In this document: piece after piece, positions 2,458 to 63,491 of the stretch
Layout: each line of letters begins with the position of its first letter
Position numbering within the stretch: position 1 is the first letter of the stretch
IMG/VR virus record: IMGVR_UViG_3300014204_000140
Span: 31,074 to 95,073 of that record
DNA from: a virus
Taxonomy: Duplodnaviria; Caudoviricetes
DNA length: 64,000 nucleotides
Strand: one strand, 5' to 3'
Notes under the pieces: model-generated
Databases searched by the model: none
Told to the model about the DNA's origin: nothing
Seen by the model: the letters and a program-made list of their open reading frames with translations, nothing else
Program-made: the position numbers and the translations under genes

Positions 2458-4357
2458 TCCTTTTTTGGAGGATTATGGAACACTAACACCAATAGTTGTT
2501 CCTTCATATGAAGCTGAAGAAGCTGTTATTGAGTTAACTACTGGATACAATCCATATATTATAAATGGATCTGGTGGTGATTCATATTGGACTAAATCAA
2601 CAGTTACTACTTTAAATCCTATCTTAACTACTGATAAAGTAGTTATCGGTGGGGTTTCTTTTTTAGGTACTGAAGTATTTAGAGTAGTAGGAGGAGCAAA
2701 TATTACTAGATTAACATTTGGATCTGAGTCTACTTATATAACTAGTGTAAAAGATGAAGATACATTAGTATCTAATGATGCACATGCTATACCTACACAA
2801 CAATCAGTTAAAGCATATGTAGATAATGCAATAACTACTGGATTACAACCTGGAGATAATATATCTCTTTTAACAAATGATGTACCATACTTAATAACTG
2901 AAACTGATCCTATTTTTGTAGCATCTCCTGCTTATACTGTAACTAGTACTCAAATAACTCATTGGGATACTGCTTATGGTTGGGGAAATCATGCTTCTGC
3001 CGGATATTTAAGTATAGAAAATGATCCTATATTTACAGCTTCTGAAGCTTATTTAATTACTACTACAGATACTACTAATTGGGATACAGCATATACTAAT
3101 AATCACACCCATGTTAATAAAACATTATTAGATTCATTAATTTCTTCTGGAGCAGGAACTTCTGCATTAATGAATGATGGTACGTATAAATCTATTGCTA
3201 TTATAGCAGGATCAGATACATACGTACAATTTAATGATGGTGGAATATTTGGAGGAGATTCAACATTTATATTTAATAAGACTACAAATAGATTAAGTGT
3301 TGAAAATATAACAGTTACAACTAATTTAGATTTTAATGTTACACCATCTACAACTTATATATATGAAGATGGTAGTTCTAATTTAACATTTGTAGATTCT
3401 GTTTCTGGATCTGCTACATTAGCGGATCTATTAGGAGCTGGAACATCTTTTACGTTTACGTCCCCAACAGGATGGATTGAAACTTCTTCTACAGTTGGTG
3501 GTATACCAGCAGGAACCCCGGTAGCTTCTTTAAATGGACAAACATTAGTTGCTATATTACGAATGATGTTATTTTCAACTCCATCTAATCCTATATTTGT
3601 CATTCCTACTGAAACTATAGTATTAACAGAAGGAACTCCTGTTAATTTTAATGGATTATATGTAGAAAGAGGATCTACTTCAATAATGACTATAGTTGGA
3701 ACATTTGTTAGTACGAATGGTCCTGGTGGAAAAGCATATGCATTATTTGATGGTGCTGCTACATATGAATTAAATGATACTGCATTTACTAATCCTAGTA
3801 GTGTTACCTTTACTTCCGGAACTTATAAATTTGAAGTAAATCAAGTATTTAAATCTAATGGGTTGGGAGAGGCAGATCCTGAGTTTGTTGTTTTATCAAA
3901 TGGAGCAACTGTATACGCAAATGATTATACTGGATATGCTCCAGGAACTGCCACTAATACAAAAACATATACTGCTGTTGATCCTATATATTATGGAGCA
4001 TTTACAGCAGGTACATCAGATTACAATACAGTACCTACTTGGAGTGAAATTACAACTGGTTGTACTAAACTTATATCAATAGAACCTACAATTCTTACAG
4101 TAAATATTACTACTTATTCTGGAACTGTAAATACTCATGAATATATTTGTGTTGCTTATCCTGATTCATATGGATTATTATCACATATATATTATGTAGA
4201 AGGAGGTAATAATGATGTCATTAGTTCTTTCTTAAATACTACAGAAACTTATACTAGAACTGATTCTACTACAGTTACTTATAGAGTATATTATGCGTTA
4301 AATAGTTATTCTGGAGAAACTACTCCTAGAACATTACATTATACAATTACATTTTAG
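2435..4357 (+). CDS. Tail fibre / virion fibre protein
   Basis: T/S/G-rich. Contains PTQQSVKAYVD, tandem ETDPIF.AS.A...WDTAY repeats and the VQFNDGG.FGGDS.F.FN motif common in phage fibres. Confidence 0.7.
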   Translation: MEVITLGNPFLEDYGTLTPIVVPSYEAEEAVIELTTGYNPYIINGSGGDSYWTKSTVTTLNPILTTDKVVIGGVSFLGTEVFRVVGGANITRLTFGSESTYITSVKDEDTLVSNDAHAIPTQQSVKAYVDNAITTGLQPGDNISLLTNDVPYLITETDPIFVASPAYTVTSTQITHWDTAYGWGNHASAGYLSIENDPIFTASEAYLITTTDTTNWDTAYTNNHTHVNKTLLDSLISSGAGTSALMNDGTYKSIAIIAGSDTYVQFNDGGIFGGDSTFIFNKTTNRLSVENITVTTNLDFNVTPSTTYIYEDGSSNLTFVDSVSGSATLADLLGAGTSFTFTSPTGWIETSSTVGGIPAGTPVASLNGQTLVAILRMMLFSTPSNPIFVIPTETIVLTEGTPVNFNGLYVERGSTSIMTIVGTFVSTNGPGGKAYALFDGAATYELNDTAFTNPSSVTFTSGTYKFEVNQVFKSNGLGEADPEFVVLSNGATVYANDYTGYAPGTATNTKTYTAVDPIYYGAFTAGTSDYNTVPTWSEITTGCTKLISIEPTILTVNITTYSGTVNTHEYICVAYPDSYGLLSHIYYVEGGNNDVISSFLNTTETYTRTDSTTVTYRVYYALNSYSGETTPRTLHYTITF

Positions 4358-7045: not shown

Positions 7046-8008
7046 ATGGCAGCAACACTAACAGAGATTAATGATTTTAAAGTCACTGTGATGGCTAAAC
7101 AGGTAGAGATATGTAATATATTAACTAATATATTAAGTATTGGTGGAAGATTTGATAATGAAGTTTATCTTATTAAATTACAAGGTATCAATGAATATTG
7201 TAATATTATCATAGATTATCTTAGTGAATCAGATTATGAAAATGACAATTTCTTTACTTTAGTTGAATTTCAAGATATTATAGAACACTTTAATGATTTA
7301 TGTAATACAGATTATTGGTTTCCGATTTCTGTTGTAGAAGTTATTCCAACAGTTTTCTATAATACTGTACAATCTGGAAACTTTACTAGAAATAATTGTG
7401 GTGGAGGATACTATGGAAGTTTAGTAACATATACTGTTCCAGCTGGTACATATATGTCTAGTGTTTCTCAAGCAGATGCTGATAGTCAAGCTTTAACTGA
7501 AATTACAGCAAATGGACAAACTTATGCTAATACTTATGGAACATGTACAATAATTCCTACTGTTTTGTTTGAATCTGATTTTGCAACACCATGGGTTGGA
7601 GGTCTTCCAGTTAGTTGGTCAAGACATGTTGGATTTCCAGATATTGGAACTATTACTGAAGATCCAACTGATCATGTTAAAATGTCTTATACTGGGAATG
7701 TGTATACTAATAATCATATAGTATATGCTGGAGCTATTTCTAATACTCCTAGAAATGTAAGAATAGAAGTTAAGATAGATTCAATGTCTGCTGATACTGA
7801 TATACTAATAGGATTTATACAAAGTATGACATTACCATATGGTGGAGGTTACAGAACTATACAACCATTTCCAACAATAGCAGGAACTTATTCTCAAGTT
7901 ATATGGACTAATGGATATACTGATATAGCAATAATAACTAGAAAGACGATTTCTGGACCAAGGACTATAGAAGCTGTAATAGAATATGTGAAAATTTATC
8001 CTGTTTAA
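7046..8008 (+). CDS. Virion protein with DUF5977-like domain and C-terminal jelly-roll
   Basis: FYNTVQSGNFTRNNC..GYYGSLVTYTVPAGTY.S.VSQADADSQA....ANGQTYANTYGTC matches the DUF5977 pattern. Confidence 0.7.
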   Translation: MAATLTEINDFKVTVMAKQVEICNILTNILSIGGRFDNEVYLIKLQGINEYCNIIIDYLSESDYENDNFFTLVEFQDIIEHFNDLCNTDYWFPISVVEVIPTVFYNTVQSGNFTRNNCGGGYYGSLVTYTVPAGTYMSSVSQADADSQALTEITANGQTYANTYGTCTIIPTVLFESDFATPWVGGLPVSWSRHVGFPDIGTITEDPTDHVKMSYTGNVYTNNHIVYAGAISNTPRNVRIEVKIDSMSADTDILIGFIQSMTLPYGGGYRTIQPFPTIAGTYSQVIWTNGYTDIAIITRKTISGPRTIEAVIEYVKIYPV

Positions 8009-11879: not shown

Positions 11880-12417
11880 TAGTAAATTATTCTTATATAC
11901 AGTAATTGTAGGATGTATATATCTATGGATAGTAGATAGAAAGAATCTTGCAGAAAATGTAGATAGATTAGGAAGAAATCAAACTGCATTAGTTCTTAAG
12001 AATAGTGAACAGATAGAACTTACTAAGAGAGAATTTACAAGACTTTATCATAAAGAAGATTCTATAGCACAATTTATTGGTATTAAACCAAAACAGTTAC
12101 AAAATGTAATAGTTAATAACTATCATTATAAAGATACTAGTATAGTCAAATTTCCTCTTATTCCTACTAATACTGGAGATACGGTAAAGTTTATTAAACC
12201 TACAGGATGTGTTAGAGTTGAAGGATATGTATTAAATAAAGATATAATATTTAATAAAGTAGAGGTATTTGATACTTTTACTACTTATTTATATGGTAAG
12301 AGACCTCATAAATTTTTATTTATTAAATGGGGTAAATGGATTATAGATGCTAAAACGTATTCAGAATGTAAAAAAGATACTATACAAGTTGAAAAGAATT
12401 TAAAAATTAATAATTAA
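11839..12417 (+). CDS. Putative spanin-like membrane-anchored protein
   Basis: N-terminal TM helix, coiled coil, then a beta-rich periplasmic part with KFLFIKWG; typical of Bacteroidota phage lysis cassettes. Confidence 0.5.
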   Translation: MWTVILSWGKKILNSKLFLYTVIVGCIYLWIVDRKNLAENVDRLGRNQTALVLKNSEQIELTKREFTRLYHKEDSIAQFIGIKPKQLQNVIVNNYHYKDTSIVKFPLIPTNTGDTVKFIKPTGCVRVEGYVLNKDIIFNKVEVFDTFTTYLYGKRPHKFLFIKWGKWIIDAKTYSECKKDTIQVEKNLKINN

Positions 12418-12579: not shown

Positions 12580-12983
12580 AAATTTCTGCAATTACTCTTT
12601 CTCTATTATTTATACTAGTTATTAGTCAATATCATATATCATATGAAGGATTTAGAGGGTTAACAGAAAATCAATGGAATAGAGTATGGGTAATTGCAGA
12701 AAATTCTTTAAATTTAACTATGTCTACACTAATTACTATTCTTGCGGGAAGTGGATTAATACGTTTAATGTTTAAGTATATATTTATTCCATATTTTATT
12801 GTAAAGTTAATTTATCAATGTAGTATGTTTTTTCAAATATATATAGTATCTAAAGAATGGTGGGAAAGTATATGGAGTTTTATATGTGTATCTTTATTAA
12901 CTATAGGGGTATTTTATTGTTTAAGATTAATTAGAAAATATAGAAAAAATGTGGCCAAAATTTTTAAATTCAAAGTGGTTTGA
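12552..12983 (+). CDS. Membrane protein (about 4 TM)
   Basis: Four hydrophobic segments in 143 aa. Confidence 0.6.
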   Translation: MDNNKVDVLEISAITLSLLFILVISQYHISYEGFRGLTENQWNRVWVIAENSLNLTMSTLITILAGSGLIRLMFKYIFIPYFIVKLIYQCSMFFQIYIVSKEWWESIWSFICVSLLTIGVFYCLRLIRKYRKNVAKIFKFKVV

Positions 12984-13399: not shown

Positions 13400-14101
13400 A
13401 TGGCAATTGAATTTGTATCATTAGATACTATCATATATGATCTTTTATATATCATAGAAGGTTCTCAAGTATCTCAAAGTATATCTATTACAACTAATCA
13501 AATAGAAAATTGGATTCATCAATACAGAGCTTTATTAATTAAACAAGATCTTGATAAAGGTAAAATTGTTAATCCAGACTATGTACAAGAGATACAATGT
13601 ATGAAACTTATAGTTGTAGATAAATCTGAAGATTCAACTATACAAACTGGTAGACTTTTAGTTAGATCTGAATTACAAGTTCCTAAAACTATTGATTTAA
13701 ACTTTAGATCTGGATTTACTTATATAGGTACATTAGATGGTAGAGAATTAGATTTTGTTCCACAATCTAGAGTTAAATGGCAGAAAGAAAAATACTATAC
13801 TCAAAATTCTCCATTAGTATACTTAAAAAATGGATATTTATTTGTTGATAATGATCATGTTATAGAATGGTTATGTGTTAGAGGTGTATTTGAATTACCA
13901 CCAGAAGTTGGTAATTTTGTTAATCCTTATACTAATACTCCGGAATTTACTATTAGTAGTAAATATCCTATTCCTATTAATATGTTACCAACTCTTAAAG
14001 AAATGATATTAAAAAAAGAATTAGCAATAACAGTTGGTTCTCCTTCTGATACTAAAAACGATGCTTCTAATATAGTTACTCCAAATGAGAGGGAAAAATA
14101 A
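13400..14101 (+). CDS. crAss-like tail ring protein
   Basis: QIENWIHQYRALLIKQD, ELQVPKTI, VRGVFELP, YPIP...PSDTKND; immediately upstream of the IHF-like gene as in crAss-like phages. Confidence 0.7.
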   Translation: MAIEFVSLDTIIYDLLYIIEGSQVSQSISITTNQIENWIHQYRALLIKQDLDKGKIVNPDYVQEIQCMKLIVVDKSEDSTIQTGRLLVRSELQVPKTIDLNFRSGFTYIGTLDGRELDFVPQSRVKWQKEKYYTQNSPLVYLKNGYLFVDNDHVIEWLCVRGVFELPPEVGNFVNPYTNTPEFTISSKYPIPINMLPTLKEMILKKELAITVGSPSDTKNDASNIVTPNEREK

Positions 14102-28000: not shown

Positions 28001-31000
28001 CTGAAAGAGCATGGACTGGGCAGGGTAATGAGGATATGAAAGGTAAAGGAACCCCTGGTAATGTACTATTTGAAACTAACAAAACTTGCAACGGAGAAAC
28101 TGGTACTATCAAATGTAATATATCTAAGTTATCTCCCGAACATGCTGCAATATTATGGGATGTATTAATTACTAGGTCTCATAGAGGAAGTGGTGGTAAT
28201 CAAGCTGTATATAAAACTGAAGATGTTGAAGGATTAACTATTGGACAAGTATTAAAGTTATTAACTAATTTTGGTCCTAAAACTAATATTAATCATCCTA
28301 ATAAAGTTGGTAAAGAATATCTTAAAAATAAACAACTATTTATAGATAATAAACTTATTCTTCATTATGGAGAGAATACTGTAGATATACATGATATATT
28401 CAAGAATAGAATTAATATAACTCAGGAAAGAGAGAATTTTATTAATTGGGCTACTAAGAATAAAAATTATACTATTACTAAAGAGATTCCAGAATTAGGA
28501 ATTGAACTTAATAAACCTATGAAGAAGAAATTTAAATTAGGTTCATGGGTTAGTGAAGGTAATGATAACTATAGTGGATTCTTAATTAAGAATGGGATAG
28601 TTCAAACTGATGTAGATGAATTTGAAAATACAGGATCATTATATCATGCTCCTGTAACTATAATTGATATATCTGAATCAGGATATGAAGTTATTCCTGC
28701 TAAACCAATTATAAAGAAAGCTAAAGCTACTGCTAAAGAAATTGAAACTCAAAGTAACAAACCTTCTACAAATCCTAAGAATACCGGAACTACTAAAGTT
28801 ACTTCTACTAAAACTGGAGAACTTACAGTATCTCCTACAGAAATAAATAAGTTAAAATCATTACCAATAGGAACTGATATATATCTTAATATACATAGTA
28901 AACTTGGAGTTGATGAAGATAAAGATATAATTACTCCAGTATTAGTATTATCAGTTGTAGATAGTGGAGGAATTAAATCTTATCGACTTAAAGGTGCTAG
29001 ATTAAGAACTGCATTTGGAATATCTATTGAATCATTTCAACAAGATCCTGAGCCTATAATTGAAATTAGTGATCAATCTGTTAGTAAGATTAGTACTGTA
29101 TTAACTAACTATAAAGACTATAGTATCAATGTACCTAAAGAAATTGAAACTAAGGAACCTGATATTAAGGAAGAATCTACAATTGAAGAATTTACTCCAG
29201 ATATTAAAAAGTCTGATGTTATTACTGGGTATAGTGCTGATCCTATCACTGATATTAATTCTGGTAATGAAGCTCCGTTCAAGTTGGCTTATACAATTCC
29301 TCCTCATTATGAGATAATTGATATACAAAAAGAAACTAGATGGTTACGAGATAAATTAGGTAATATTCCAGTTGAGATAGTAAACGGATTAATATATATG
29401 TCCAAAGGTAATAGAATAGCTATTGGACAAATGAAGAGAGATTCAATTGCATTATCTAATGTAGCAATGTCTAGTACTAGTTATCATGAAGCTTTTCATA
29501 GAGTATCATTATTATATTTAGATGAAGAAACTAGAGGTTCTATATATAACGAAGCTAGAAAAAGATATACACTTACTAACCAAACAGATAGTCAAGTTGA
29601 AGAAGTATTAGCTGAGAAGTTTAGAGAGTATGTAATTGATAGAGAAAGTGAATCTCCAAGACTTACATTTTTTGGTAAGATTGCAGAGTTCTTTAAAAAC
29701 TTATATTTATTAGTTAAACATGTATTTACTGGATCTAATAGATTAACTGATTTAGATATTGATAAATTATTTCAATCTATTCAAAGTGGTAAATTTAGAT
29801 ATAATAAACCATCTAAAGAAAACTTAGATAGATTAGGATTTGGTACATATGAATTAGAATACAAAGATAGACAATTAAATAATGTTGTTAACTTTAAGAT
29901 GTTTAGATCTTTAGTTAGAGGATTATCTAGTATTGTAATGAAAGATGTTAGTACTAAGTTATTTAGAGAATATACTCCGGATAATATAAATACTCTCAAT
30001 CCTAATGAAGTGTTTGTATTTGGTAGTAATGCTGAAGGAGTTCATGGTAAAGGTGCAGCTTTGTTAGCTAAACAGAAGTTTGGAGCTGTACAAGGACAAT
30101 CTGAAGGATTACAAGGACAATCTTATGCTATAATTACTAAAAAAGATTGGAGAGTTGAAAAATCATCTACTTTGCAAGAAATTCAAAGTGGATTAGAAAA
30201 GATGTTAAAGTTTGCAAGTAATAATCCAAGTAAGAAATTTTTAGTAACTAAATTAGGATCTTCTTTAGCAGGATATACAATAAATGAAATAAGACAAATA
30301 TTTGAAAATCTTAAAACTCAAATTCCTAATAATGTAATATTACCAAAAGAATATGAACTTAGAGATCAAATATCTAAGTATACAGCAGTTGATGTAATTG
30401 ATTCTATTCAGTCTATTAACTTTAACAGCTTAAAGAATAGAATTGAGAAATTAGTTGATGATTATAGTAAACATGCAGAGTATAGTAGTTGGATATTAAA
30501 GACAGTTGAGAAAGGGCAACTAACCCCTAAATTAGCCTCACAGTTGAAAGATATGTGCAAGGTGGACTCTATATCCAATCTTACATTAAAAGTTAACCAC
30601 GGGCTTGAAAATGCCCTTAGATTGGCTGATTTATATCAGGAGGTTGTAGATAACTATGAAAACATATATAAAGATGCAATTGAGGAGTATATCTATAATG
30701 AGTTAGGAATTAGAAAGGTAAATAAAGAAGGAGAAGATAGAAAAGTAGATAATAGAGAGATAGCTAGATTTGATGAAGAATCTTACGAAAGATCTGCAAA
30801 AGATAGTATATCTAACTCTATTAAATTTTTAATATCAAATTTACATGAATCTACAGAAGTAGATCAATTAACTGGACTTTACAAATTTGTAGAGTTTGAT
30901 GAGATATGGAGTAGATTAATGAATGATATTCATAGTCGAGATAATATTGAAGATATGATGAAAATTCTTGAATCTAAAGATTACTTTCCATATCAACAAT

Positions 31001-42949: not shown

Positions 42950-43642
42950 TTAATTTTTACATACTTCTGAAAATACTTTTTCCATTACATCTTTATTCCA
43001 ATCAAATTCTTTATTTGATTCAGGTTTTTTAGTTTTTATATAGATATCAGTAATATCTTCAATTTCATCTTGTAAATTAAATCCTGCAACTATAGGTCTA
43101 GATGATGAAATAGTATCTTTAATTATAAGTTCTTTTTGTATTCCAGTTTTTTTAAGATCTATACTTATTGCTATAATATCCCTAATAATATGTCTAATCC
43201 TATCTATAGATTTATTTTTATAATTTTTAAGTTTGGTTACTAGTTCAGATATTTCAATATCATTATAGTATTTTTTAGGAATCATATTTTCTACTATACT
43301 TGTTAATATATCTTCATCATCAAAACTAAAATAGAATTCTTCTTCAATTCTACTAGGTCTATCTTTGATAAATGATGGAAGTTTATTGCTATCATTAACA
43401 GTATTAATAATTATTAAGTTATCTCTTTCTTTAGCTCCACTTAAAAATGATAAAGCATCAGTATTATAGTCTCTAAATGTTTTTTCCATTTCGTCAATGA
43501 TTAAAACTATAAGTCTATTTTTATCATTAATTCTAATTGTATCTATTAAATTAGAATAATCGGCATATTTAGTAACTAATATTGCTATAGCATCTCTTTT
43601 TTCACATATTTCTTCGGCTATCTGTCCAGCTAAGAATGTTTT
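42950..43642 (-). CDS. AAA ATPase, exon 2
   Basis: Reads KTFLAGQIAEE...LIVLIIDEMEK (Walker B)...INTVN...DRPSRI. Joined to exon 1 it restores the Walker A motif GDPGTG|KT (329 aa spliced). Confidence 0.85.
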   Translation of the reverse strand, partial: KTFLAGQIAEEICEKRDAIAILVTKYADYSNLIDTIRINDKNRLIVLIIDEMEKTFRDYNTDALSFLSGAKERDNLIIINTVNDSNKLPSFIKDRPSRIEEEFYFSFDDEDILTSIVENMIPKKYYNDIEISELVTKLKNYKNKSIDRIRHIIRDIIAISIDLKKTGIQKELIIKDTISSSRPIVAGFNLQDEIEDITDIYIKTKKPESNKEFDWNKDVMEKVFSEVCKN

Positions 43643-44759
43643 CGATTTTGTTATCGTTGAGGTTGTTATCTCAACTTCTAGTATTTCTTATTTATACTAG
43701 TCCAGCGTACATTTTCATCCATCTTTCGATTAGGATGTAGAGTACTCTTGGGAGAATTATATTTATTCATCTCCTACGCGTTACAGTGATTTAGATCCTT
43801 TCGTAATATCTAAATTTACCACGGTATTCACATCTCAGTGTTCACCGTTTTTACTCTATTATCATATTATATATTACTATATAACACGGCAAATTCTTTG
43901 TATTTATTATATTTTCTATCTAAATAAATACTAGCATCTTTATATAATTCTTCTAAAATAGTTAATGCTGTTTTTCCAGCATACCGTATGAAAATAGTAT
44001 TTTCGTTATGTCTTTTATCATGCATTAATTTATTTGTTTTCCATTTCATTAAATTAATAGTATTACTAATAAAATGATATGTTCCAATTAATATTATACA
44101 ACAATTTGTCTTTTTTAGACTAATGTGAGTACAACCGTCTCCATCAAAATATCCTCTTATAAAAGAAGTTATTAGATTTTTTGGTAATATATTAATTGGA
44201 AATTGTAATGTAAGAGATTTTTTAGAAGTACATCCATATTGAATAAGTATATTTTTTAAATGTTTATTAGAAATACTAACTCTACATCTAAAATAATCAC
44301 TTCTAATATTTCCTGACCATTGTAAAAAAGTTTTAAATTTTTTTAAATGATTTATATCACTAAGTTTTAAACTTAATTCTATATTATTTCTTTTATCGCT
44401 TACATATCCATCTGCAAATAAAAAACCTAACCAATAAGCTTTTTCTTCATTATCTATACTATCAAATATATGTTGATTAAATTTACATATATTTTGTTTA
44501 TTATTAACTATAATATTATTATTTTTTAAATAATTAGAAAATCTTGATTTATTAATTTTAAATATTTTTGAGAGATTAGTCAAACTATATTCTCCTGTTA
44601 TATATAAAAGTTTAGCTTTTTCAAATTTTTCTAAACTATTTTGATGCATTATTTTATTATATTTTTCTAGCTTATTCATGATAAGGTATATACTTATAAT
44701 ACCTTATACTTGCTATTAAATATAATGTTTCATTTTAATAGAAATATTTTAAATTATTT
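43643..44759 (-). mobile_element. Group I intron (1117 nt) in the AAA ATPase gene
   Basis: 5' exon ends in U (ACAGGU) and the intron ends in G (ACAAAAUCG). P1 GGU/AAA pairs with UUUGCC near 43890. S-like AAUGUACGCUGGAC and P9 hairpins are present, and removal restores the frame. Confidence 0.88.
43867..44679 (-). CDS. Intron-encoded LAGLIDADG homing endonuclease
   Basis: AYWLGFLFADG and FIRGYFDGDG motifs, YLDRKY end, N-terminal HTH. Confidence 0.92.
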   Translation of the reverse strand: MNKLEKYNKIMHQNSLEKFEKAKLLYITGEYSLTNLSKIFKINKSRFSNYLKNNNIIVNNKQNICKFNQHIFDSIDNEEKAYWLGFLFADGYVSDKRNNIELSLKLSDINHLKKFKTFLQWSGNIRSDYFRCRVSISNKHLKNILIQYGCTSKKSLTLQFPINILPKNLITSFIRGYFDGDGCTHISLKKTNCCIILIGTYHFISNTINLMKWKTNKLMHDKRHNENTIFIRYAGKTALTILEELYKDASIYLDRKYNKYKEFAVLYSNI

Positions 44760-45090: not shown

Positions 45091-45197
45091 AGACTCTAGA
45101 TAGGATTCGAACCTATACGTGTAACTTTCTTGGGCTTTCACCAATGGCACACTATCCACTGCTTAATCTAACGTCTACCAATTCCGTCACTAGAGTC
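45091..45197 (-). ncRNA. tRNA-like RNA with non-canonical central region (possible pseudo-tRNA)
   Basis: GACTCTAG/CTAGAGTC acceptor stem, Leu-type D arm ACG-GAATTGGTAGA-CGT, and T arm ATAGG-TTCGAAT-CCTAT. There are 54 nt between the D and T arms, no canonical anticodon arm and no encoded CCA. Confidence 0.65.
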
Positions 45198-49638: not shown

Positions 49639-49671
49639 AAAAAAATAAAGGCTTCCATATTTCAGGAAGCC
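49639..49671 (-). terminator. Rho-independent terminator after the SSB-like gene
   Basis: Minus strand GGCTTCC-TGAAATAT-GGAAGCC followed by TTTATTTTTTT. Confidence 0.75.
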
Positions 49672-49698
49672 TGGGGATATATAAAAATGTTCTATTAA

Positions 49699-50379: not shown

Positions 50380-50747
50380 TTATTTGTTATTATTTAATAT
50401 TTCTCTTACATGTTCTAAGAACTTATTACAATCATTAGGAATAAAATCCTGATTATCTACTAAGAATATCGGTGGACATTTAGCAGAATCTTTTCCATCA
50501 GTATTTAACTTGAGATTGTATTGTTTCTTTTCGTCTTTAATTCGTACATCAGCATAGGTTACAATGGTGAATTCTTTTTCAATCATACTTTCCCATTCTT
50601 TCCCTTTGACCTTTATACGTTTTTCAATAGCTCCTTCTTCTGTTTGAATCCATTCATAATGAGCTGTTAAAAATATATCTTTTGGATATTTTTTTATGAT
50701 AAACATTAATTTACCAATTTCTTCATTATATAGATTCCAGATGTCAA
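50380..50747 (-). CDS. AAA_24 / Sak4-like ATPase, exon 2
   Basis: (F)DIWNLYNEEIGKLMF...FLTAH...EKEFTIV...SAKCP; in frame after splicing (216 aa total). Confidence 0.85.
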
Positions 50748-51771
50748 CAAATTTGTGTTAACTCATACTTTCATATGAGATCAGACTATATCTTTATTTT
50801 ATATTTCCATTGAAAACCTTTACATGTTTTTCTTAATCCTCTTAAACATCTAGATATATTCGGAGCTTTAATATTAAAAGAATTAGCAGCTTCTATAATT
50901 GAAGACCATTCTTTTATTAAATTTCCTTTTTTATCTAATTGTAAAATTTCAGTTTTAGAATTCCACTTAATATCAAATTTATCAAATGAATCTTTAAAAT
51001 ATCTAAATGTAAATTCTTTACAAGATTTTATTTTACCTTTACAACATTCTGTTATATGAGATCTTTCTATTTTTAATTCTCTAGCAGCTTGTACAGCACT
51101 TTCAAATGTATTTATTAATTTTCCATTTAATGAAAAAAGTTTTATGGGAACAGAATTTCCTTCTCCTATTCTTTTTTTCCATTCTTCTGAAAATCTTCTA
51201 CCTTTAAAAGCTTTAGATAATTTTTCTCTTGTTTCTTTTGTTATATTATATCCATACATTCCTTCACCACCATTAGTAAGATTTTTTAATTCAAATCCTA
51301 ATATTTTTAAATTAATAATCCAATATTCTTCCCAAAATTCCCAATTTTCATAAACTTCATCTATAAGTTTAATTATTGGTTTTAAATTTTGAGATTTTAA
51401 ATATTTAATCCATGATGATTTTTTAGATATAGAAGTATCAGATAAATGTGCTCTATATCTTTTCATTATTGGTTGTATAGTTTTACCTAGATATTTAATT
51501 TTATTATCTATAGGATCAATTAATACATATATACTTGTTTTCATATAAAATACTCCCTGTTTCACTCAATAGAGTTACTCTCTTTCGAGATAGTCGTTGA
51601 ACCTTATTCATATATAATTTTATTATAATTATACGTAGAATCTTGGCTGCGGGTTACCTAATATGAGTAATTTTTCCAACATTCAAATCCGTCTTTTCAG
51701 ATAATTTTGTAGTTTACTCATCTCTAAAGGCTTTCACGCAATTTAAGGAGTTAGGGCTTGACTTTATGTTT
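50748..51771 (-). mobile_element. Group I intron (1024 nt) in the Sak4-like ATPase gene
   Basis: P1 AGGGU/GCCCU with a U.G pair and P10 GUCAA/UUGAC. Core elements P AAUUGCGUGAAA, Q CCCGCAGCCAAG, R GUUCAACGACUA and S AAGAUAUAGUCU are present, with a terminal G. Confidence 0.93.
50786..51565 (-). CDS. Intron-encoded GIY-YIG homing endonuclease with NUMOD3/NUMOD1 repeats
   Basis: IYVL..YLGKT...RY..H, LKNLTNGGEG, ETREKLS, and two FES..AA...I..C..G..KTCKGF.W repeats. Confidence 0.9.
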   Translation of the reverse strand: MKQGVFYMKTSIYVLIDPIDNKIKYLGKTIQPIMKRYRAHLSDTSISKKSSWIKYLKSQNLKPIIKLIDEVYENWEFWEEYWIINLKILGFELKNLTNGGEGMYGYNITKETREKLSKAFKGRRFSEEWKKRIGEGNSVPIKLFSLNGKLINTFESAVQAARELKIERSHITECCKGKIKSCKEFTFRYFKDSFDKFDIKWNSKTEILQLDKKGNLIKEWSSIIEAANSFNIKAPNISRCLRGLRKTCKGFQWKYKIKI

Positions 51772-52054
51772 ACCCTTTCTTAGTTTCACGAGCTGTTTTT
51801 AGTACAGAATCCATGTAAGAACTAAAACTATCAAAGACTACTTCAGTTATTTTGTCATTTTTGGCATATTCGATAAGTTTGGTATAAGCATCTTGCCAAG
51901 TATTAGGACAGTAATAATGTTCAAATTTATTTATGAACGGTAATGGTTTACTTTCCATATTGATAAATCCGCAAGTTTTAGGATTCATATTTACAAATGA
52001 ATATGTTTTTCCTCTACCTGGAGATCCGACAATCATAAACTGATATGGTGTCAT
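51772..52054 (-). CDS. AAA_24 / Sak4-like ATPase, exon 1
   Basis: IVGSPGRGKT Walker A, VVFDSFS Walker B. Confidence 0.85.
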
Positions 52055-52059
52055 TTTAT

Positions 52060-52303
52060 AGTCTTTCTTTAAAAAAGACTGTTAATTAAATATATTATGT
52101 TCTGTGGCAGATATTCTACTATAAATATTTTTCAATATTTATTTTCCTCCATTCTCCGCCTAGAAAAATAAAAGAACATTATTCTCTCCTTTCTCTTTTG
52201 AGTAATCAACCCTTCCATGTCTGGACGTGTCTAACATATTAATAATATATTTCACCTTTATATTAACTATAATTAATTAACAGTCTATATTGTTAATTAA
52301 TTA
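52060..52303 (-). ncRNA. Candidate structured RNA / regulatory leader
   Basis: 14-bp closing inverted repeat (52076-52089 / 52273-52286), nested stems, four internal hairpins and alternative flanking hairpins. Confidence 0.5.
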
Positions 52304-52909
52304 TTTGCACATTTTTAAACATTTCTTCATTATCTGTGAACATAGTGATTCTTTCTTTGGAGATTTAACAAATATATCATTTGTTACTACTTCATAGATA
52401 GTACCATTTATATTTACAAGATCATTTTTAATATCAAATGTGTCATATCCAATCTTTACAAAATTGTTGAATATAGATACTTTTTCATCTATATCTATAT
52501 ATTCATTATCAAAGAGAATTTGTTTTGCAAATTTCTTACCACTTTTGTAATATGGACAATTTTTACAATCTTTATGAGGAAGATTATCTAAATTATCTTT
52601 ATAAAGATTCTTAATCATTTCTTTTATCTTATAGTAATCACTTACTAAACTATATACTTTACTATTAGATACATAATTTTTCTTTATATAGATTTCATTT
52701 TTTGTAAATACTAATAAGTCACCAAAATCAATATTTGACGCTTTTCTTAGATTTACTCCTCTACTATTATGTTTTTCAATAATATTCAATAAAGATTCAA
52801 GATAATCTCCAATACAATCATCTACTTCTACGACAAATTCTTTTGATTCTTTATCTTTATTCTTTTGTTGAACTATTGAAAATATACATCTTTCAATATT
52901 TGGTTTCAT
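52301..52909 (-). CDS. Hypothetical protein (CxxC)
   Basis: 202-aa ORF with DCKNCPY. Confidence 0.65.
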   Translation of the reverse strand: MKPNIERCIFSIVQQKNKDKESKEFVVEVDDCIGDYLESLLNIIEKHNSRGVNLRKASNIDFGDLLVFTKNEIYIKKNYVSNSKVYSLVSDYYKIKEMIKNLYKDNLDNLPHKDCKNCPYYKSGKKFAKQILFDNEYIDIDEKVSIFNNFVKIGYDTFDIKNDLVNINGTIYEVVTNDIFVKSPKKESLCSQIMKKCLKMCK

Positions 52910-52919
52910 TTTTAATTTT

Positions 52920-53577
52920 TTAATTTATTATTGGATTATATTCTTCAATACTATTGTATTTCAAATTATTTATAAAAGATAGTATTTTAGGTTCTCCTTC
53001 TCGACATTTAAGTATATGCATATAGATCATATTGTCAACAGGCCAGTTATTGATTCCATATACTCGTATACCGAGTTTTTCCGGAGTATGTAATACTATA
53101 ACATAATCACTTGAAAAGAATAAACTATCAGATCCTGATAGATCTCGTCTTTGAGGAAAATGTAAAGATGGATTAGTTATTCTACTAATTTCTTCTATTT
53201 CTCTATTTAGTTGACTTAATTGTATAATAGTTGTTTTTCCTATTTTTTTTTCTTCTATAAACATTCTTTCTAAATTTACTAATGTAGTTCTTTCTTGTTC
53301 TCCAGATTCACTTTTAGTTAATAATACATGATCAAAGTCTACTATTAACCATTTATCTTTAGCATATATTTCTCTGAATTTATCAATTGTATTTTTGATT
53401 TCAGATACTGTACCTGGACTATCTACATAATAAATCGGATAAGTCTTAATTTTTTTACTTTCTTCTTCTACCTTTTTAAAGTCTAAATCAGAAAGTGGTT
53501 CTATAACAGTATATAATTCTGATGTTGTCTTCTTTAGTTTGTAGGACAGCTTACGTCCTATTTGTTTAAAACTTAAC
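52920..53577 (-). CDS. dnaB: DnaB-like replicative helicase, exon 2
   Basis: (M)LSFKQIGRK...WLIVDFDHVLL...IIQLSQLNR...DLSGSD...SDYV...HILKCREG. Confidence 0.88.
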
Positions 53578-54551
53578 CAATGTGTTATCGTAAAGGCTCT
53601 TTATCCTTTACATCTACATTTTATTTTGTTATATATGTAGTTCAGACTATATCTTATTCCAATTAGAATTAGTTGCAGTCCATTTATCATTAATTAAACG
53701 ATAAAACGGATGAAAAGATTCTGATTTTGGAATTTCCGCTTTCGTGGTAGAATTATTGTCTACTTGAGACTCACTACTAGTCGTTGAACCTTTCTCTGTA
53801 TTACTACAAGAGCTTGGCTGCTGATTGCCCTCTTCAGGGTTTTCCAGACAATTAACGGAATTACGAGACATTTTTCTAATTTTATATAACATACAAGGAA
53901 TTTTTTGTATATATGGTTTAATTAAATATTCAAAGAGATTTCTTGAGTTTACTCTAATGTAAATTCTATTATCATTAGATATAGTTGTTTCAATATTCCA
54001 CTTATTAAATAAAAATTCTTTAAATAATATTAATGAGTCTTTATCAAATCCACAAGATGCTATTATATAGGAAGTATTTTCTGGATGTGTACTAGATAAA
54101 CTACCATCATCCATATATAAAATTGCTAGTGAAAATTCTGTAAAATTATCCAAAATTTCAGTAGTTATTTTTTTCTTCTTATTTTTATATAATATATTAT
54201 ATAATTTAGTAATTTCTTTATTACAATTTGTAATAGTAGTATTACTTTCATATAATTTTCCTGTTTTTTTACTCACAGTTTTTCGTTTATATTTATAGAA
54301 TTTAGATCCTAATCCTTCTAATATTTGACTTTTCCATTTATTATATTCGTATTGTTTAGGACCATGCTGACATTGAAACATTGCGTTTATACATTTAGAT
54401 GGTATTTTCATATTACCATCTCCTAACATACAACCTGCAAAGAATTCTTTTTGTATTTGTGTTATTTCTTGTATCATCTTTCGTTTAAATTGATTATTTA
54501 TCAAGTTATACGAAAGTTATTTGATAATGTTATATAATATCATTGTTTTTT
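53578..54551 (-). mobile_element. Group I intron (974 nt) in dnaB
   Basis: 5' exon ends GAGAU, which pairs with GUCUC near 53866. Core elements P AAUUGUCUGGAA, Q AAUCAGCAGCCAAG, R GUUCAACGACUA and S AAGAUAUAGUCU are present, with a terminal G. Splicing restores the FSLEM motif. Confidence 0.92.
53647..54504 (-). CDS. Intron-encoded LAGLIDADG homing endonuclease
   Basis: FAGCMLGDG and LAILYMDDG motifs; the C-terminal tail overlaps the ribozyme core. Confidence 0.9.
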   Translation of the reverse strand: MINNQFKRKMIQEITQIQKEFFAGCMLGDGNMKIPSKCINAMFQCQHGPKQYEYNKWKSQILEGLGSKFYKYKRKTVSKKTGKLYESNTTITNCNKEITKLYNILYKNKKKKITTEILDNFTEFSLAILYMDDGSLSSTHPENTSYIIASCGFDKDSLILFKEFLFNKWNIETTISNDNRIYIRVNSRNLFEYLIKPYIQKIPCMLYKIRKMSRNSVNCLENPEEGNQQPSSCSNTEKGSTTSSESQVDNNSTTKAEIPKSESFHPFYRLINDKWTATNSNWNKI

Positions 54552-63339: not shown

Positions 63340-63491
63340 TCTTTGATTAATTTGTTAAACTAATCTGGCCTATATATTGATCTACATAAAATGATAATCC
63401 TCAGACTTAGAATATCTCTAGATTGCAAATGAGAAATTATTTTTACTCTAATTGTCTATTATCTAGGATCTAATCTGAGGATTATATATTT

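Follow-up and report, generated by a model that had tools for sequence, protein, structure and literature searches.

The window analyzed here, a stretch of 64,000 nucleotides, covers bases 31074-95073 of IMGVR_UViG_3300014204_000140 (Caudoviricetes), a complete virus record of 95,073 bp that has direct terminal repeats. The genome has a G+C content of 21-33%, its genes are arranged in two opposed blocks, and a DFDVD motif is located at residue 877 of a 2030-aa ORF. In crAss-like phages, DFDVD is the motif that marks the virion RNA polymerase (bioRxiv 10.1101/2020.03.07.982082). Shine-Dalgarno sites are not used by this genome (9 of 85 genes compared with a background of 11%) and the leaders are A-rich. 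Taken together, G+C content, opposed gene blocks, the DFDVD ORF, and the missing Shine-Dalgarno use point to a crAss-like phage with a Bacteroidota-type host. A search on DNA level for named phage relatives retrieved none.

In the replication block on the minus strand, the order of transcription is dnaB (split by a LAGLIDADG endonuclease ORF), a 202-aa ORF, and the element under study, followed by a Sak4-like ATPase (likewise split, here by a GIY-YIG/NUMOD endonuclease ORF) and then by a 193-aa ORF, primase, a resolvase-like protein, and an exonuclease. The element is bordered by the following genes:

52301..52909, minus strand: upstream gene, 202 aa (from the ORF list), its stop codon at 52301-52303 being the first triplet of hairpin 1
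51770..52054, minus strand: first exon of the Sak4-like ATPase, 94 aa with an N-terminal Walker A motif (PHROG 2872, E 7.9e-12; Pfam AAA_24), start codon ATG at 52052-52054

The upstream gene has no Pfam or PHROG match and its own peptide patterns retrieved no relative; in the related loci described below, an ORF ends at the equivalent position. Sak4 is interrupted after residue 94 by approximately 1.0 kb (50707-51769, minus strand) hosting the homing-endonuclease ORF (50786-51565), and exon 2 picks up again near 50750. This interruption is probably a group I intron; the Rfam group I intron model gives no match to it. Among 157 scored Sak4 ORFs (156 related loci and the window), 136 are unbroken with a length of 210-229 aa, the others being broken at two positions. 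In dnaB (53265-54504, minus strand), the LAGLIDADG ORF spans 53647-54504 and is followed by a structured gap of 382 nt (z -4.5). In one relative, L062, Rfam identifies a genuine group I intron (77.8 bits), located approximately 1 kb ahead of Sak4.

A preliminary description, made from the letters of this DNA, had proposed a multi-branch structured RNA in the gap in front of Sak4, enclosed by a closing stem that competes with two hairpins. All stems listed there, both competing hairpins included, are present on the minus strand at the positions given. In the direction of transcription, the element consists of:

52270..52303, minus strand: hairpin 1 (5' competitor, candidate anti-terminator), arms 52291-52303 and 52270-52282, 8-nt loop, 13-14 bp, perfect
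52273..52286, minus strand: 5' arm of the closing stem, a 14-nt perfect arm, conserved in sequence across the clade
52090..52272, minus strand: interior, about 181-183 nt, multi-branch
52214-52225 and 52198-52209, minus strand: interior hairpins
52162-52196, minus strand: purine/pyrimidine stem, 15 bp with four G.U pairs
52106-52160, minus strand: interior helix carrying a perfect 9-bp hairpin with a GAAA loop (52121-52142)
52076..52089, minus strand: 3' arm of the closing stem, a 14-nt perfect arm
52070..52075, minus strand: U6 run directly after the closing stem
52060..52080, minus strand: hairpin 3 (3' competitor), 7-9 bp, ending 5 nt before the ATG

Hairpin 1 is a perfect 14-nt inverted repeat that begins at the stop codon of the upstream gene and is part of the minimum free energy (MFE) fold. 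It shares nucleotides of its 3' arm with the 5' arm of the closing stem, and hairpin 3 takes up the U run together with the final 5 nt of the 3' arm of that stem. Each strand of the closing stem thus has a competing partner sharing its nucleotides. The closing stem is extendable to 18 bp with one mismatch and has its G+C concentrated in the 6 bp adjoining the U run. Two second-tier pairings (52243-52252/52088-97 and 52233-38/52096-101) also exist as described, with an overlap of 2 nt between the two and a local hairpin as competitor. A U run directly following a 14-18-bp stem, here ending at 52076, is a property of intrinsic terminators, and mutually exclusive pairings that include the terminator stem are a property of attenuators. 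The short loop of an intrinsic terminator is missing: the interior measures 183 nt, and a terminator scan covering loops of 3-8 makes no call.

The strength of the fold bears out the preliminary description. On the sense strand the element reaches -56.3 kcal/mol (z -5.6 against dinucleotide shuffles, with none of 200 shuffles as good) compared with -43.7 kcal/mol (z -4.7) on the antisense strand, and in a separate test its z of -6.5 was the most extreme among the 21 intergenic gaps of the genome. The interior alone folds with z -3.65 on the sense strand; in a test with 150 shuffles, z was -4.0 for sense and -2.7 for antisense. For the inner 129 nt the two strands differ most clearly (-23.8 kcal/mol, z -2.6, versus -12.4 kcal/mol, z -1.2), since the 15-bp purine/pyrimidine stem needs its four G.U pairs, in agreement with the earlier view that G.U pairs favor the minus-strand RNA.

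The element was also correctly placed outside the known RNA families. Rfam 15 gave no match at gathering score for the window or for 16 related loci, and at E<=10 only chance-level matches for 2.5 kb of sequence and the 281-nt element; 19 relatives did not place it in a known family either. A tRNA- or tmRNA-like identity was discarded, as ARAGORN finds no cloverleaf or T-arm in the window, and so was a repeat within the phage's own genome, the element being single-copy. A scan for promoters of sigma-70 type, a model that leaves Bacteroidota-type and phage-polymerase promoters outside its reach, remained at background (173 found versus 181 expected) without a strong site in the element. Literature on crAss-like intergenic stem-loops, terminators, and Sak4-linked RNA motifs yielded nothing specific.

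The first Sak4 exon retrieved 16 related loci and their alignment then 160 more, originating from IMG/VR and from soil, wetland, sediment, and sludge metagenomes. Counted from the upstream ORF to the start of Sak4, the loci provide 108 distinct spacers, 93 of which (those of at least 45 nt) were analyzed. A z below -2 was obtained for 77% of them, with a median of -3.2. The common denominator of this slot is a stem and a T-run approximately 20 nt before the Sak4 ATG, not the fold seen in the window. A helix of at least 8 bp ending at most 45 nt from the ATG is present in 90 of the 93 spacers, and 67 MFE folds combine the ending helix with a T-rich tract at a median of 24 nt to the ATG (interquartile range 19-30), 27 of them as simple hairpins and 40 as long-range pairings (>55 nt); both counts are approximate, as the helix picking behind them is crude and sometimes takes the wrong helix. 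Hexamers of the T-run are enriched 13-25-fold in the last 35 nt before the ATG of the 93 spacers, and textbook G+C-rich terminators are found in the slot, e.g., in L073, L057, and L185.

Two further counts are the robust results of this comparison. In 39 spacers a T-run of at least four is located right behind the 3' arm, compared with 4 spacers having an A-run ahead of the 5' arm. Single non-Watson-Crick positions in the closing helices, read on the sense strand, are G.T in 34 cases and A.C in 4, counted in helices found from Watson-Crick seeds only and with base composition predicting roughly equal numbers. Based on these two asymmetries, the stem acts in RNA and in gene direction. The sequence of the closing stems is wholly different between subclades while the pairing is kept. 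On the Sak4 tree, the content of the slot changes at least 31 times among 87 rows, with a conserved RNA (see below) scattered among plain terminators; a second, smaller insert family and several two-member families occupy the slot as well. About 12 relatives (e.g., L057, L073, L126, L142, and L143) share a recurrent 8-nt motif resembling an extended -10 box, positioned 12-17 nt before the ATG right after the terminator, which may be a promoter coupled to it.

At 48 of the 160 loci, representing approximately 30 distinct sequences, a conserved sense-strand RNA of ~100 nt is nested inside the closing stem and usually followed by a T-run; some of its carriers (L049, L053, L061, and L136) have no T-run after the closing stem. 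It is placed ~30-140 nt before the Sak4 start (e.g., L042-L086, L119-L179) and forms a three-helix junction with an invariant internal loop, a conserved hairpin loop, and a three-base pseudoknot. In an unrefined MAFFT alignment, 80.6% of its cells pair, a value that none of 500 shuffles reached (64%) and that drops to 27-45% on sliding; 19 of the 26 pairs change on both sides. A 7-bp pseudoknot of the UAUUGCG type was set aside, being weakly supported with 59.8% of the cells paired and little covariation. The covariance model R1 (alignment A3) matches only directly upstream of Sak4, with one copy per genome in the three whole records searched, and the RNA is absent from Rfam, as searched with 16 loci and 19 relatives. 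Recurring at a single gene junction across many uncultured phages, it is in our view a good candidate for a riboswitch or ribozyme and a concrete candidate for a phage cis-regulator of a recombination operon. The window's element shares with it the slot, the nesting in a closing stem, the T-run, the sense strand, and the occurrence once per genome; its interior, in contrast, has no detectable sequence or structure in common with it. Membership was rejected on the basis of R1 itself, which, run over the whole window with filters off, gave no match in 52055-52303 and its best one elsewhere at an E of ~1, true members scoring 41-100 bits.

The closest comparison is provided by the window's own clade, comprising the window and 12 other spacers; the Sak4 exons of these mostly share 79-96% identity with that of the window. 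Common to all 12 others are a near-invariant 5' box (hairpin 1), a closing stem using the 3' arm of hairpin 1, and the U run. Hairpin 1 pairs in 88.7% of the cells of the 13 members compared with 11-54% when slid. Its covariation is limited to one pair changing on both sides, matched by 136 of 500 shuffles, the sequence being too invariant for significance. Read from the alignments, A-A versus G-G variants of the central arm are matched in both partners, with G.U in the distal one. Hairpin 3 is found in the window, L110, L111, L036, and partly L114 (~5 of 13) and is missing from the other members. The box of ~13 nt occurs once per genome and is confined to the slot, and a search with it for further clade members returned only contigs already in the set. 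Its carriers form one group on the Sak4 tree (support 99) except for L066, which combines the box with a foreign Sak4. Distant relatives have kept the stem but not the sequence of the box.

The sequence between the arms is unrelated from member to member, with lengths of 33 to 181 nt. Similarity is limited to three pairs of inserts (L033/L115, L112/L114, and L034/L066, with conserved loops and covarying stems), resulting in at least nine insert types. Of the L112/L114 and L033/L115 families, one has a hairpin resembling a tRNA T-arm and the other a hairpin with a conserved 10-nt loop and covarying stems. The G+C content of many inserts (0.34-0.49) exceeds that of the genome (~0.25). As L123 and L110 have short inserts of 33-46 nt, or a plain hairpin takes its place in some relatives, the insert is dispensable. 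The mean z of the inserts of all 13 members is -1.1, the same as antisense, and only the window's insert is strongly structured by itself (z -4.0).

With respect to the expected conservation and covariation in relatives, the preliminary description therefore holds in part: closing stem, hairpin 1, and U run are conserved in 12 of 12 others, whereas the branched interior of ~180 nt is found in no relative. A lack of conservation or covariation in relatives had been named there as a ground for refutation; this ground applies to the interior and not to the closing stem. Local alignments with shuffles against the 12 clade inserts gave no similarity, and blastn against the 16 loci, three whole related genomes, and exact and gapped pattern scans of IMG/VR did not locate the window's insert elsewhere. 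A riboswitch with a conserved ligand-binding domain was rejected for the same reason, the interior having no homologue in the 160 related loci or IMG/VR. The proposal of a new non-coding RNA is likewise retained as far as an RNA-level structure on the sense strand outside Rfam is concerned, and not with respect to the branched interior, on which the look of a new class was based and which is not conserved. The closing stem is the only part of the window's element shown to be under selection, and the branched fold is an orphan; the element is in this respect a caution, since its most impressive feature is the one without relatives.

The two conformations of the window's element are nearly equal in energy, with -54.2 kcal/mol for the closing stem forced and -53.2 kcal/mol for the closing stem blocked, the MFE being -56.3 kcal/mol. 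Near-equal energies are also found in L110 and L111. In most clade members the closing stem beats the alternative by 6-16 kcal/mol, and these would consequently not switch on thermodynamics alone.

The slot also marks a border of exchange. Between L013 and L019, identity is 96-99% as far as the spacer, falls to 54-70% within Sak4, and returns to 84-100% beyond it (locus ~2990-3600). This drop in identity across the gene indicates that Sak4 was exchanged as a cassette with its left junction at the U run of the spacer element.

We interpret the element as a terminator- or attenuator-type RNA punctuation signal with a lineage-specific structured insert, a reading to which we assign a probability of about 0.5 and in which termination, switching, and a role of the ribosome are inferences. 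Its conserved part is positionally equivalent to the plain intrinsic terminators of other relatives. The core would be the long closing stem and the U run, forming an intrinsic-terminator-type signal on the gene-sense strand approximately 21 nt before the Sak4 start codon. Four segments can be envisaged: the stop-codon region of the upstream gene (1), the 5' arm of the closing stem (2), its 3' arm with the U run (3), and the leader before the ATG (4). Pairing of 1:2 together with 3:4 would exclude 2:3. Formation of 2:3 could end the transcript there, or would at least give it a highly stable structure on its 3' side, and would leave the Sak4 leader single-stranded; if 1:2 and 3:4 are formed, there would be no terminator and the A-rich leader would be sequestered. 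A ribosome finishing the upstream gene would occupy segment 1 and push the RNA towards 2:3. The 183-nt interior would take the position of the terminator loop, fold on its own, and probably help to bring the arms together. An open or closed leader would matter for initiation, because the genome has A-rich leaders and does without Shine-Dalgarno sites. Against this interpretation it has to be considered that the loops of known intrinsic terminators are far smaller than 183 nt, that no promoter fits into the short stretch from the U run to the ATG, leaving Sak4 dependent on read-through or on an unrecognized promoter, and that the two states are predicted to work in opposite directions on transcription and, by the openness of the leader, on translation, which blurs the regulatory logic. 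The lack of significant covariation in hairpin 1, the restriction of hairpin 3 to ~5 of 13 clade members, the energetic lead of the closing stem in most of them, and the missing T-run in L049, L053, L061, and L136 also count against it. Moreover, these early or middle genes may be transcribed by the phage's own virion RNA polymerase (bioRxiv 10.1101/2020.03.07.982082), for which a terminator reading would be less secure.

The main rival assumes that the branched RNA of ~200 nt is itself the product of a small RNA gene, released or stabilized by the closing stem (as terminator or RNase III-type stalk) and acting in trans or as a sensor domain, so that the stem is a scaffold and the slot a site for swappable RNA cassettes. 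The window's interior folds well alone and better on the sense strand, the slot hosts the covarying pseudoknotted RNA in 48 of 160 relatives, the paired insert families of the clade have conserved loops and covarying stems, and the elevated G+C content of many inserts fits as well. For the crAss-like phage phi14:2, abundant non-coding RNAs from intergenic regions have been described (bioRxiv 10.1101/2020.03.07.982082), which also speaks for a small RNA. The interior of the window, however, has no relative in which conservation or covariation could reveal selection and fails the model of the relatives' RNA even with filters off, while the other inserts of the clade are not significantly structured, their mean z equaling that of the antisense strand. 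That near relatives can do without a large insert speaks against a small RNA as well. We therefore regard a small RNA as a serious but rather unlikely explanation. A broader version, in which the gap before Sak4 is a dedicated site where small structured RNAs are readily exchanged within a terminator scaffold, each of them a different sensor or decoy (riboswitch-like or anti-defense) setting the read-through of the operon, would cover both the pseudoknotted RNA of the relatives and the orphan five-branch RNA of the window; we consider it unlikely. Alternatively, the stable structure and the short unstructured A/U-rich leader could serve as a translational operator or insulator setting Sak4 translation, with termination being incidental, either by binding of a single-strand-binding protein, for which the autoregulation of T4 gene 32 is the model, or by relaying upstream translation to the Sak4 start. 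The conserved distance from stem to ATG (interquartile range as given above) agrees with this, as does a host-type initiation that needs open A-rich leaders in place of Shine-Dalgarno sites; hairpin 3 would close the region from -5 to -25 and formation of the closing stem would open it, and the apparent indifference to the identity of the structure fits a non-specific boundary role. Most clade members lack hairpin 3, however, and the most enriched feature of the slot, the U run adjoining the stem, is a hallmark of termination rather than of an operator, which renders this explanation improbable.

The remaining explanations locate the function outside a regulatory RNA. The preliminary description had offered a replication origin as an alternative; more generally, the three copies of the ~13-nt box in alternating orientation near helicase, primase, and Sak4 could be an origin or a recombination or protein-binding site on DNA level. 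The restriction of the box to this slot once per genome, the surrounding replication genes, and the slot being a recombination boundary (L013/L019, and the foreign Sak4 next to the box in L066) would suit such a site. This boundary is expected in an intergenic gap anyway, since only such junctions give viable mosaics. An origin finds no support: iterons and tandem or multi-copy direct repeats are lacking, and the cumulative GC skew turns at ~42-44 kb, where the gene orientation flips, with no inflection at 52 kb. The stems have the G.U bias of RNA, and both asymmetries (34:4 and 39:4) point to a function of the transcribed strand; together with the distant relatives that keep the stem without the box, this makes a DNA-level element very unlikely. 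Least probable, to the extent of being nearly negligible, is a micro-protein encoded in the interior, either in an open frame of 31 codons (52160-52255) or in one of 15 codons behind a purine-rich tract resembling a ribosome-binding site, 5-6 nt before an in-frame ATG. This tract is one strand of the 15-bp stem, the genome does not use Shine-Dalgarno sites, and no corresponding frame is conserved in the relatives.

Returning to punctuation by a terminator or attenuator, Rho-independent terminators and trp-type leader attenuators are the general systems for comparison. With both, the element shares a stem base richer in G+C followed by a U run, on the sense strand and downstream of a gene. Plain terminators fill the equivalent slot in relatives, and as in trp-type attenuators the pairings 1:2, 2:3, and 3:4 are available, with segment 1 overlapped by a translated frame. 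In contrast to both, the loop of the element is a 183-nt five-branch domain and its segment 1 is the end of a full-size gene instead of a leader peptide. Unlike in trp-type attenuators, the U run is attached to 2:3 and not to 3:4. Transcription-terminating riboswitches consist of a structured domain closed by a stem, with competing hairpins and a U run upstream of the regulated gene. All of these traits are found in the element as well, whereas the orphan interior of the window has no definable conserved aptamer, and the closing stem of most clade members would be independent of a ligand, as 14-18 bp are too stable.

The element resembles the RNase III processing hairpins of T7 and the processing stalks of rRNA in having a long double-stranded stem between phage genes (18-20 bp in several clade members), with structured RNA inside or before it, that could define stable mRNA ends. 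An adjoining U run, as in the element, is not known from those sites. At the mosaic boundaries of T4-type phages, PeSL (Promoter-early stem-loop) cassettes were reportedly described by Arbiol, Comeau and Krisch in 2010. PeSLs are multi-copy per genome and include a promoter. The likeness is a conserved intergenic stem-loop flanking an exchanged cassette, the Sak4 swap ending at the element; the box, unlike PeSLs, is single-copy and no promoter was recognized. If our interpretation is true, this crAss-like clade uses terminator-type stems as punctuation among its replication genes and can accommodate, perhaps even make use of, large structured inserts in them; such an architecture escapes current terminator predictors, which assume short loops.

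Similar architectures are found elsewhere in the genome. Closing stems with a T-run number 22 genome-wide, compared with 4-12 in 20 local shuffles. Closing stems of 10-17 bp around interiors of 29-136 nt, most of them followed by a T-run, are located in other gaps at 63394-63485 of the window (minus strand) and at 13437-13542, 11883-11975, 12736-12828, 7047-7095, and 3054-3223 of G000 (minus strand). For the gap at 63340-63491, the z of the fold is -5.4. At 49649-49672 (minus strand), ~13 nt before the start codon of the primase, there is a canonical terminator hairpin with a T-run; a terminator directly before the next co-oriented gene is thus normal in this genome. A tRNA-like sequence at 45091-45197 (minus strand) has an acceptor stem, a T-arm, and an over-long middle, and ARAGORN makes no call for it. 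Strongly folding gene-free stretches were furthermore observed at 43490-43866 of the window (minus strand, z -3.4) and at 29875-30024 of G000 (plus strand, z -5.8).
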